A stretch of DNA of 14,318 nucleotides from a virus (taxonomy: Duplodnaviria > Heunggongvirae > Uroviricota > Caudoviricetes). The stretch spans positions 1 to 14,318 of the IMG/VR virus record IMGVR_UViG_2778261064_000005; one strand, 5' to 3'. Numbering within the stretch: position 1 is the first letter of the stretch; the number at the start of each line of letters is the position of its first letter. The notes below the pieces were generated by a model. The model saw only the letters and a list, made by a program, of their open reading frames with translations. It was not told the DNA's origin and did no database searches. Position numbers and translations under genes: made by a program. Of the stretch, positions 13,630 to 14,318 are shown in pieces.

Positions 13630-14247
13630 ATGGCGACGTTACGTGAACTGATTATCAAAATTTCGGCAAATTCACAGTCATTCCAGTCGGAGATCCAGCG
13701 GGCGTCCCGTATGGGCAGTGAATATTACCGGACCCTGCAGAATGGCGGACGTCAGGCTGCTGCGGCAGCCAGGGAGCAGCGCCGGGCTCTGGCTGAGCTG
13801 CACAGCCAGTTGACGGAAATCCGCGCTTCGGCTGTCGGAATGACCGGTGCGTTTGCCGGTGCCTTTGCCACCGGACACCTGATTTCGCTGGCGGATGAAT
13901 GGAGCTCCGTGAATGCCCGTCTGAAACAGGCGTCGCAGTCATCGGATGAATTTGCGTCATCACAGAAAGTGCTGATGGATATCAGCCAGCGGACAGGCAC
14001 CGCATTTTCGGATAATGCGGCCCTGTTTGCCCGTTCGGCTGCCTCGATGCGTGAATATGGTTACAGTGCTGATGATGTGCTGAAGGTGACGGAGGCCATT
14101 TCGACAGGGCTGAAAATCTCCGGTGCCAGTACGGCAGAGGCGGGCTCGGTGATCACCCAGTTCAGTCAGGCGCTGGCGCAGGGTGTATTGCGTGGTGAGG
14201 AGTTTAATTCGGTCAATGAAAGTGGTGACCGGATCGTACGTGTGTAA
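13630..14247 (+). CDS. Tail tape measure protein, N-terminal portion only (ORF ends prematurely at 205 codons)
   Basis: MATLRELIIKISANSQSFQSEIQ... and ...ITQFSQALAQGVLRGEEFNSVNE match the N-terminal domain of tape measure proteins. Tape measures are usually over 600 aa, but this ORF stops at 14245-14247 inside the conserved motif. Confidence 0.7.
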   Translation: MATLRELIIKISANSQSFQSEIQRASRMGSEYYRTLQNGGRQAAAAAREQRRALAELHSQLTEIRASAVGMTGAFAGAFATGHLISLADEWSSVNARLKQASQSSDEFASSQKVLMDISQRTGTAFSDNAALFARSAASMREYGYSADDVLKVTEAISTGLKISGASTAEAGSVITQFSQALAQGVLRGEEFNSVNESGDRIVRV

Positions 14248-14318
14248 CTTCGCGTTTTTTTCTGGGCTAATTGACGCGCAATTCCGGGCGGGGAGCGCGC
14301 AACCCAAAAGCCCAGAAT

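Follow-up and report, generated by a model that had tools for sequence, protein, structure and literature searches.

In this study, we found that a 14,318-nt stretch of DNA (the window), which is the entire contig PTRP01000055.1 of an E. coli draft genome (GCA_002965585.1) and is recorded in 4 samples, very probably carries the junction formed when a Mu-like prophage transposed into a lambdoid prophage, within its tape-measure gene. The 5' part of the gene is joined in the window to the right end of the inserted phage. From the 76 nt of the element that the window holds, we infer a complete prophage and a simple insertion at this locus. The features on which this reading depends are as follows.

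13630..14242, + strand: 5' fragment of the lambdoid tape-measure gene, comprising codons 1-204 and the first base of codon 205, of 1080
14245..14247, + strand: TAA stop of the shortened ORF, from the element's terminal TGTAAC
14243..14318, - strand: right end (attR-type terminus) of the Mu-like prophage, read inward from 5'-TGTAACTTCGCG, with 100% identity to known termini

The tape-measure gene and its breakpoint

The tape-measure ORF runs on the + strand from the ATG at 13630 to the TAA at 14245-14247 (205 codons by translation), and its stop falls within the conserved N-terminal tape-measure domain, as the preliminary description had proposed: residues 83-203 of the ORF match positions 2-122 of the 192-position Pfam model TMP_3 (PF20155). 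Intact tape-measure proteins are 1026-1081 aa long with three Pfam domains, and the 205-aa ORF has neither the full length nor the C-terminal Tape_meas_lam_C domain that accompanies TMP_3 in a complete tape measure. Over 13900-14242 the DNA shows 100% identity to tape-measure genes that are annotated as intact, the best match reaching 99% identity or more in 341 records, and the match stops at 14242. More than 300 genomes contain an uninterrupted tape-measure gene whose continuation is unlike that of the window, and neither an in-frame resumption of the gene nor functional homologues with the window's sequence at this point came to light. Alignment to intact homologues thus fixes the breakpoint at 14242|14243, where codon 205 is cut behind its first base, inside the range of 14220-14245 that had been suggested for the end of an inserted element.

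The point of divergence, by contrast, had been placed too early. It had been put after ...LRGEEFNSVNE, with SGDRIVRV regarded as foreign, whereas intact homologues read ...NSVNESGDRIVRALAAGMGVARK, so that SGDRIVR belongs to the conserved protein and the break lies eight codons later. The intact 1080-aa homologue of O157:H7 strain PV15-279 reads ...EEFNSVNESGDRIVRALAAGMGVARK and is the same as the window protein through residue 204; past the breakpoint, the intact protein runs on as ...SGDRIVRALAAGMG. The foreign bases add to the ORF only a GTG codon (Val for Ala) and the TAA stop, and the intact gene has no stop codon at the site equivalent to 14245-14247. Around the junction the intact gene reads ...GTACGTG|CACTGG, and its distal part after CGTG starts with CACTGGCTGCGGGTATGG. 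Since base 14243 is T in the window and C in the intact gene, the TG terminus belongs to the element.

Identity of the final 76 nt

No gene was found in the last ~70 nt of the window, consistent with their earlier description as non-coding-looking. The segment 14243-14318 has matches in 10 of 5426 complete E. coli genomes, all 100% identical. These genomes represent three unrelated loci, namely an HTH gene of a lambdoid prophage (08-00022), chbG (RM9088), and fliH (eight clonal OkiPb strains), and at all three the host gene is annotated as truncated at the end of the element. When the loci are aligned with the window, the flanks are unrelated and identity begins exactly at TGTAACTTCGCG (TGTAAC, 14243). 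The element in the window starts with 5'-TG, which is CA-3' on the other strand, and thus has the terminal dinucleotide of elements with TG...CA termini. Inward of the end, the opposite strand of each genome carries a gene for DUF4376 together with tail-fibre genes and the baseplate genes J/gp47 and gp46. By analogy, phage genes would lie on the - strand past 14318. Of the three origins put forward earlier (a mobile-element insertion, a deletion junction and a prophage boundary), the first therefore holds, as this terminus is found at unrelated sites flanked by target duplications, but the type of element is a transposable phage and not an IS, which had been named first.

Gene content and lineage of the Mu-like element

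The window itself shows 76 nt of the element, and its transposase, ATPase and late genes were examined in full copies with an identical right end. The OkiPb01701 copy (locus L005, 6629-43523) is uninterrupted and 36,895 bp long. Going inward beyond the baseplate genes, the order is DNA circularisation protein, tape measure, sheath, Mu-like gpT head protein, DUF935 (Portal_Mu), terminase, lysis genes, Mor and gp16, and the far end of the element encodes a MuB-like AAA ATPase, a protein annotated with "Mu transposase C-terminal domain", and two HTH regulators, of which one in OkiPb is repressor-like and the other Ner-like. The OkiPb transposase matches the Pfam families Mu-transpos_C (61.6 bits) and HTH_Tnp_Mu_1 (33 bits), both above the cut-off, and rve with a score under it, and the ATPase matches AAA_22 and TniB. 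Mu-type late genes of the same copy were recognized by the Pfam families Mor, Portal_Mu, Mu-like_gpT and DNA_circ_N. Judged by this gene content, the element is a Mu-like transposable myovirus prophage of ~36-37 kb with a predicted contractile tail.

The transposase of this lineage shows weak sequence similarity to MuA (E about 4e-4 to 4fcy and 1bcm). Its best identity in the phage collection is 49%, the phages being Pseudomonas VW-6B, Klebsiella ST405-OXA48phi1.1 and Yersinia Tongde. Members of the lineage are already present in RefSeq with annotation, for example the eutC prophage of E2348/69. The Mu-like copies in RM9088 (L004, L009) and 08-00022 (L008) are full of IS, including ISCro1 and other IS66-family elements, ISEc12 and IS1A, with ISCro1 located within (08-00022) or beside the tape-measure gene of the Mu-like copy itself. 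The RM9088 and 08-00022 copies are likely immobile.

Insertion sites and target-site duplication

The left end of the lineage (...GATCGCTACCCCACA) is present in 49 of the 5426 complete E. coli genomes at many loci, including eutC (EPEC E2348/69), ypdF, a TonB-dependent receptor gene, phnJ, an RHS gene, a phage holin gene, and a phage capsid gene; altogether, insertions of the lineage occupy at least 10 different and unrelated loci. Both junctions were read in seven independent insertions, those of E2348/69, SCAID, 08-00022, RM9088, OkiPb, Ec55 and S13 (loci L005, L013, L016, L017, L018, L008, and L004 with L009), using TGTGGGG...GAAGTTACA as the termini. Each insertion is flanked by a perfect 4-bp direct repeat (ATTG, CACT, ACTT, CGCT, CATT, CTTG and CGCT). 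A 5-bp duplication combined with TG...CA termini fits none of the seven; 5 bp with the terminal A trimmed fits four (E2348/69, SCAID, 08-00022 and RM9088) and is excluded by OkiPb, Ec55 and S13. Thus, this E. coli Mu-like lineage appears, from the sequences of its junctions, to use a 4-bp and not a 5-bp target stagger, of which we found no description in the literature searched. Mu is known to be cleaved at terminal CA dinucleotides and to generate 5-bp target duplications (PMC3562280, PMC3145075). The 4-bp duplication argues against Mu sensu stricto, though not against the wider Mu-like group. The seven duplications allow one further feature to be predicted in the window.

14239..14242, no strand assigned: predicted copy of the target duplication, CGTG, the other copy being expected at the left-end junction

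Other members of the lineage also reside within lambdoid prophages. The copy in SCAID WND1-2021 (L016, 3658-39473) sits in a prophage of the type seen in the window, where it occupies the protease-capsid gene, and the copy in 08-00022 (L008) sits in the HTH gene of the replication region of a lambdoid prophage. A further match to the lineage was seen under a phage holin gene in STEC316.

Repeats at the ends of the element

The perfect 9-nt inverted repeat that had been reported near the end of the window, TTCTGGGCT (14260-14268) and AGCCCAGAA (14309-14317), is indeed present. It is not one of a pair of matching terminal inverted repeats; the two ends of the element share only TGT and copies of a 9-bp motif. 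At the left end this motif, ATTCTGGGC (with at most one mismatch), occupies positions 17, 91 and 142 in a single orientation, and at the right end it occupies 17 and 39 in one orientation and 68 in the inverted one. The right-end copies in the window are listed below.

14259..14267, + strand: end-repeat copy 1 (TTTCTGGGC), at a distance of 17 nt from the terminus; R1-like candidate, overlapping the outer arm of the inverted repeat
14281..14289, + strand: end-repeat copy 2 (ATTCCGGGC), in the same orientation as copy 1, candidate R2-like
14310..14318, - strand: end-repeat copy 3, in inverted orientation (ATTCTGGGC on the - strand); R3-like candidate, overlapping the inner arm of the inverted repeat

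Since the motif positions overlap both arms, the arms of the inverted repeat are copies 1 and 3 of an end-repeat array. The layout is kept in every copy examined (four left ends and three right ends), including the divergent E2348/69 element, which has a perfect ATTCTGGGC at the position of copy 2. Within the 36.9-kb OkiPb element there are 14 matches to the motif, six of which fall within the terminal 150 bp, and the others are near the number expected by chance (estimated at about 8). At the level of sequence, the element thus has multiple short repeats at both ends, differently arranged left and right, as is typical of Mu-like elements. Their position and conservation suggest that the 9-bp repeats are probably transposase-binding sites like R1-R3 of Mu.

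The inverted repeat might instead act in RNA as a hairpin, such as a terminator of the last gene of the phage, and not as a pair of protein-binding sites. RNA from the - strand folds with moderate stability at -29.3 kcal/mol (z = -2.67), as a hairpin would require, but no U-tract follows the stem on either strand (there is an A-run on the - strand, and no T-run on the + strand), so that the repeat lacks the features of an intrinsic terminator, and the terminator scan makes no call there. Furthermore, no Rfam family matches the repeat, the three 9-mers of the left end are all direct and cannot pair, and a right-end relic in phiSTEC1575 has both arms changed without compensation. We therefore regard an RNA hairpin as unlikely and retain the repeats as putative transposase-binding sites. 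The only Rfam match over 13500-14318 was a sub-threshold rsmX at 13530-13611 (E = 0.38). A weak terminator-like call at 14238-14255, which spans the junction, was taken as a chance product of the fusion, three such sites being found as compared to 1.3 expected.

Contig ends and copy number

Positions 1-77 of the window are 100% identical to an end of ISCro1 (IS66-family), with lambdoid homology from 78. This ISCro1 end includes the first codons of tnpA on the - strand. The 77 nt at the right (14242-14318) consist of one flank base and the 76-nt phage terminus. That both contig ends lie 77 nt into multi-copy elements points to a de Bruijn assembly with k = 77 that broke at repeats, and a break of this kind at a repeat implies two or more copies of the phage end in the source genome. 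Such a number would not be exceptional, one to three Mu-like phages per genome having been reported for CC119 STEC (PMC10132054).

The 205-aa chimeric protein is recorded in exactly two assemblies, GCA_002965585.1 and the Logan assembly of SRR5185401, the contig of the latter corresponding to 10152-14270 of the window with the same junction. The junction is absent from the 5426 complete E. coli genomes, and the exact 40-nt junction pattern had no match in the genome, viral or metagenome contig collections. A search of 5.8 billion proteins with the distal 876 tape-measure residues, in which the N-termini of 16 fragment-length matches were inspected, yielded no far (left-end) junction but only ordinary fragments from contig edges. 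The single match that starts just past the breakpoint was likewise attributed to a contig edge inside an intact gene.

How the junction may have arisen

In the sequence of events that we favour, the transposase of the Mu-like phage would have bound the candidate end repeats and nicked at the terminal CA, and the ends of the element would have been joined to target DNA cut with a stagger of 4 bp. The TAA that leaves a 205-aa stub would then have come from the TGTAAC of the element itself, and the inserted phage would have parted the other 876 codons, along with the tail genes downstream, from the late operon, leaving the lambdoid prophage with no tails of its own. The sequence presumably stops where it does because the assembly graph broke in the repeat.

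Other origins of the junction have to be weighed against this. Intramolecular replicative transposition could have brought the right end to the tape-measure fragment with a different locus on its other side, since inversions and deletions linked to a phage copy are known products of Mu replicative transposition (PMC3562280), and the contig break, which implies at least two copies of the end in the genome, would accord with such an event. However, all seven lineage insertions that could be checked are simple, with matching 4-bp duplications, and the window itself shows no sign of rearrangement, so that we give this possibility little weight. It is even less probable that the 76 nt are a solo or degraded remnant of the kind found in many lambdoid prophages. 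Right-end-like relics next to DUF4376 pseudogenes are indeed far more numerous than left ends (677 and 49 of 5426 genomes, respectively), but these relics are 82-85% identical, whereas the 76 nt of the window match the ends of full-length prophages at 100%, and for a repeat to break a contig a second, identical copy of 77 nt or more is required. This identity to full-length prophage ends, together with the uniformly simple insertions elsewhere, makes both a rearrangement and a remnant less likely than insertion of a complete prophage.

An artefact, with the tape-measure gene really intact and the junction due to an assembly chimera or a sequencing error, might be suspected because the draft assembly is rich in repeats and the junction is located at the end of a contig. 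We consider it highly improbable, as the same junction occurs in the Logan assembly of SRR5185401, the contig is recorded in several samples, and the foreign DNA has the exact anatomy of a transposon end, with the terminus at nucleotide 1 and a TG start. As for the end of an insertion sequence, the abrupt break in homology and the terminal TG would fit one, but in all 10 genomes the neighbours of the end are tail-fibre and baseplate genes in place of an IS transposase, no transposase gene lies within the about 1-3 kb from the end that would be expected of an IS, the ends have no long terminal inverted repeat, and the element is ~36-37 kb long; an IS was accordingly rejected and retains next to no probability. 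Transposition of a Mu-like prophage into the tape-measure gene thus remains by far the best explanation.

State of the lambdoid prophage

The tape-measure stub is without 876 of 1080 residues, including the other two Pfam domains listed for intact homologues, and by annotation the downstream tail genes follow the tape-measure gene in intact prophages. Because these residues would be lost and the distal part of the gene and the tail genes cut off from the late operon, the lambdoid prophage is predicted to be tail-defective and should not be able to form tails alone. Its spread would then depend on other lambdoid prophages, which are typical of such strains, through either complementation or recombination.

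The prophage differs from an intact one at other places as well. ISCro1, located immediately upstream of the holin gene, separates the late-gene control region from the lysis and morphogenesis genes. The portal gene is split near 9565 into overlapping ORFs (8221-9585 and 9582-10643), where the window has a run of five G and the intact 861-aa portal homologue of SCAID WND1-2021 has six. PGAP marks the portal gene as frameshifted in O157 strains 180-PT54 and PV15-279 too, and the G5 run may be either a fixed lesion or a slippery homopolymer. A good terminator-like hairpin at 13588-13609 (AAAACCTGCCACAGCAGGTTTT, with T runs on both flanks) is located between the gene for tail assembly protein T and the start of the tape-measure gene; its call in the scan is for the - strand, but on the + strand, too, the sequence closes with a T-run.

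Right-end relics and wider meaning

Relics that are 82-85% identical to the Mu-like right end, with homology starting exactly at transposon nucleotide 1, are found downstream of side-tail-fibre/DUF4376 genes of lambdoid phages. Four of them are listed below; the two chromosomal loci examined, those of SS52 and IHE3034, are at the ompW-side prophage end.

phiSTEC1575-Stx2k (L010): 1905-1991, right-end relic
SerU-LTIIb (L011): 1157-1315, right-end relic
O157:H7 SS52 (L019): 5001-5165, right-end relic
IHE3034 (L020): 5001-5164, right-end relic

The excess of genomes with right-end-like sequence over those with the left end suggests that Mu-like phages, once inserted, were a source of tail-fibre modules for lambdoid phages. 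Along such a route, a Mu-like phage would transpose into the tail region of a lambdoid prophage, and after a later deletion or recombination its right terminus and tail-fibre/DUF4376 genes would stay behind as a fusion with the lambdoid genome. With some doubt, we put forward the speculative reading that the contig represents an early step on this route, and that lambdoid phages have repeatedly gained tail-fibre modules from Mu-like myoviruses in this way, and we include the 4-bp stagger of the lineage in this reading.

The lineage is widespread in E. coli and lands repeatedly in other prophages, and it is plausible that it drives prophage inactivation and module exchange. Draft assemblies hide such prophage-in-prophage insertions, the sole visible trace here being a gene that stops 76 nt before the contig end.

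Comparison with known systems

The lambdoid side of the junction belongs to the lambda-type tape measures (gpH family; TMP_3, Phage_HK97_TLTM and Tape_meas_lam_C), being identical to the intact protein over residues 1-204 and missing the C-terminal 876.

On the other side, the element resembles phage Mu (compared using PMC3562280 and PMC3145075) in its terminal 5'-TG...CA-3', in having three short repeats per end with unequal spacing and orientation left versus right, in the location of the transposase and its AAA+ partner by the left end and of the tail-fibre genes by the right end, and in its insertion at essentially random sites. The end sites of Mu are arranged as L1-L3 and R1-R3, which are MuA sites (PMC3562280). 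Unlike Mu, the element has ATTCTGGGC as the core of its end repeats, a 4-bp and not a 5-bp duplication, and a transposase only weakly similar to MuA, and no gin or mom is annotated at its right end, where the last gene is that for DUF4376.

A relative with a divergent right end is the eutC prophage of EPEC E2348/69 (NC_011601.1, 2715935-2751670), a member of the same lineage whose left end is 94.6% and right end 92% identical, with the same gene order, end motifs and 4-bp duplication, but with another tail-fibre module and another insertion site; the right end of the window is identical only to the variant found in 08-00022, RM9088 and OkiPb.

Like the Sp18-type Mu-like phages of STEC, the element is a transposable phage inside another prophage of pathogenic E. 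coli, albeit of a separate lineage, its transposase being 43.9% identical to the Sp18-like one. Nakamura et al. (2023) described Sp18-like copies inserted in prophages and Stx phages of STEC, with 6 of 10 copies located in mobile elements (PMC10132054), and the GenBank entries LC727881 and LC727895 bear the annotation "region of the inserted Bacteriophage Mu-like phage". Insertion of a Mu-like phage into another prophage has thus already been published, and the present case is a new instance of a known event.
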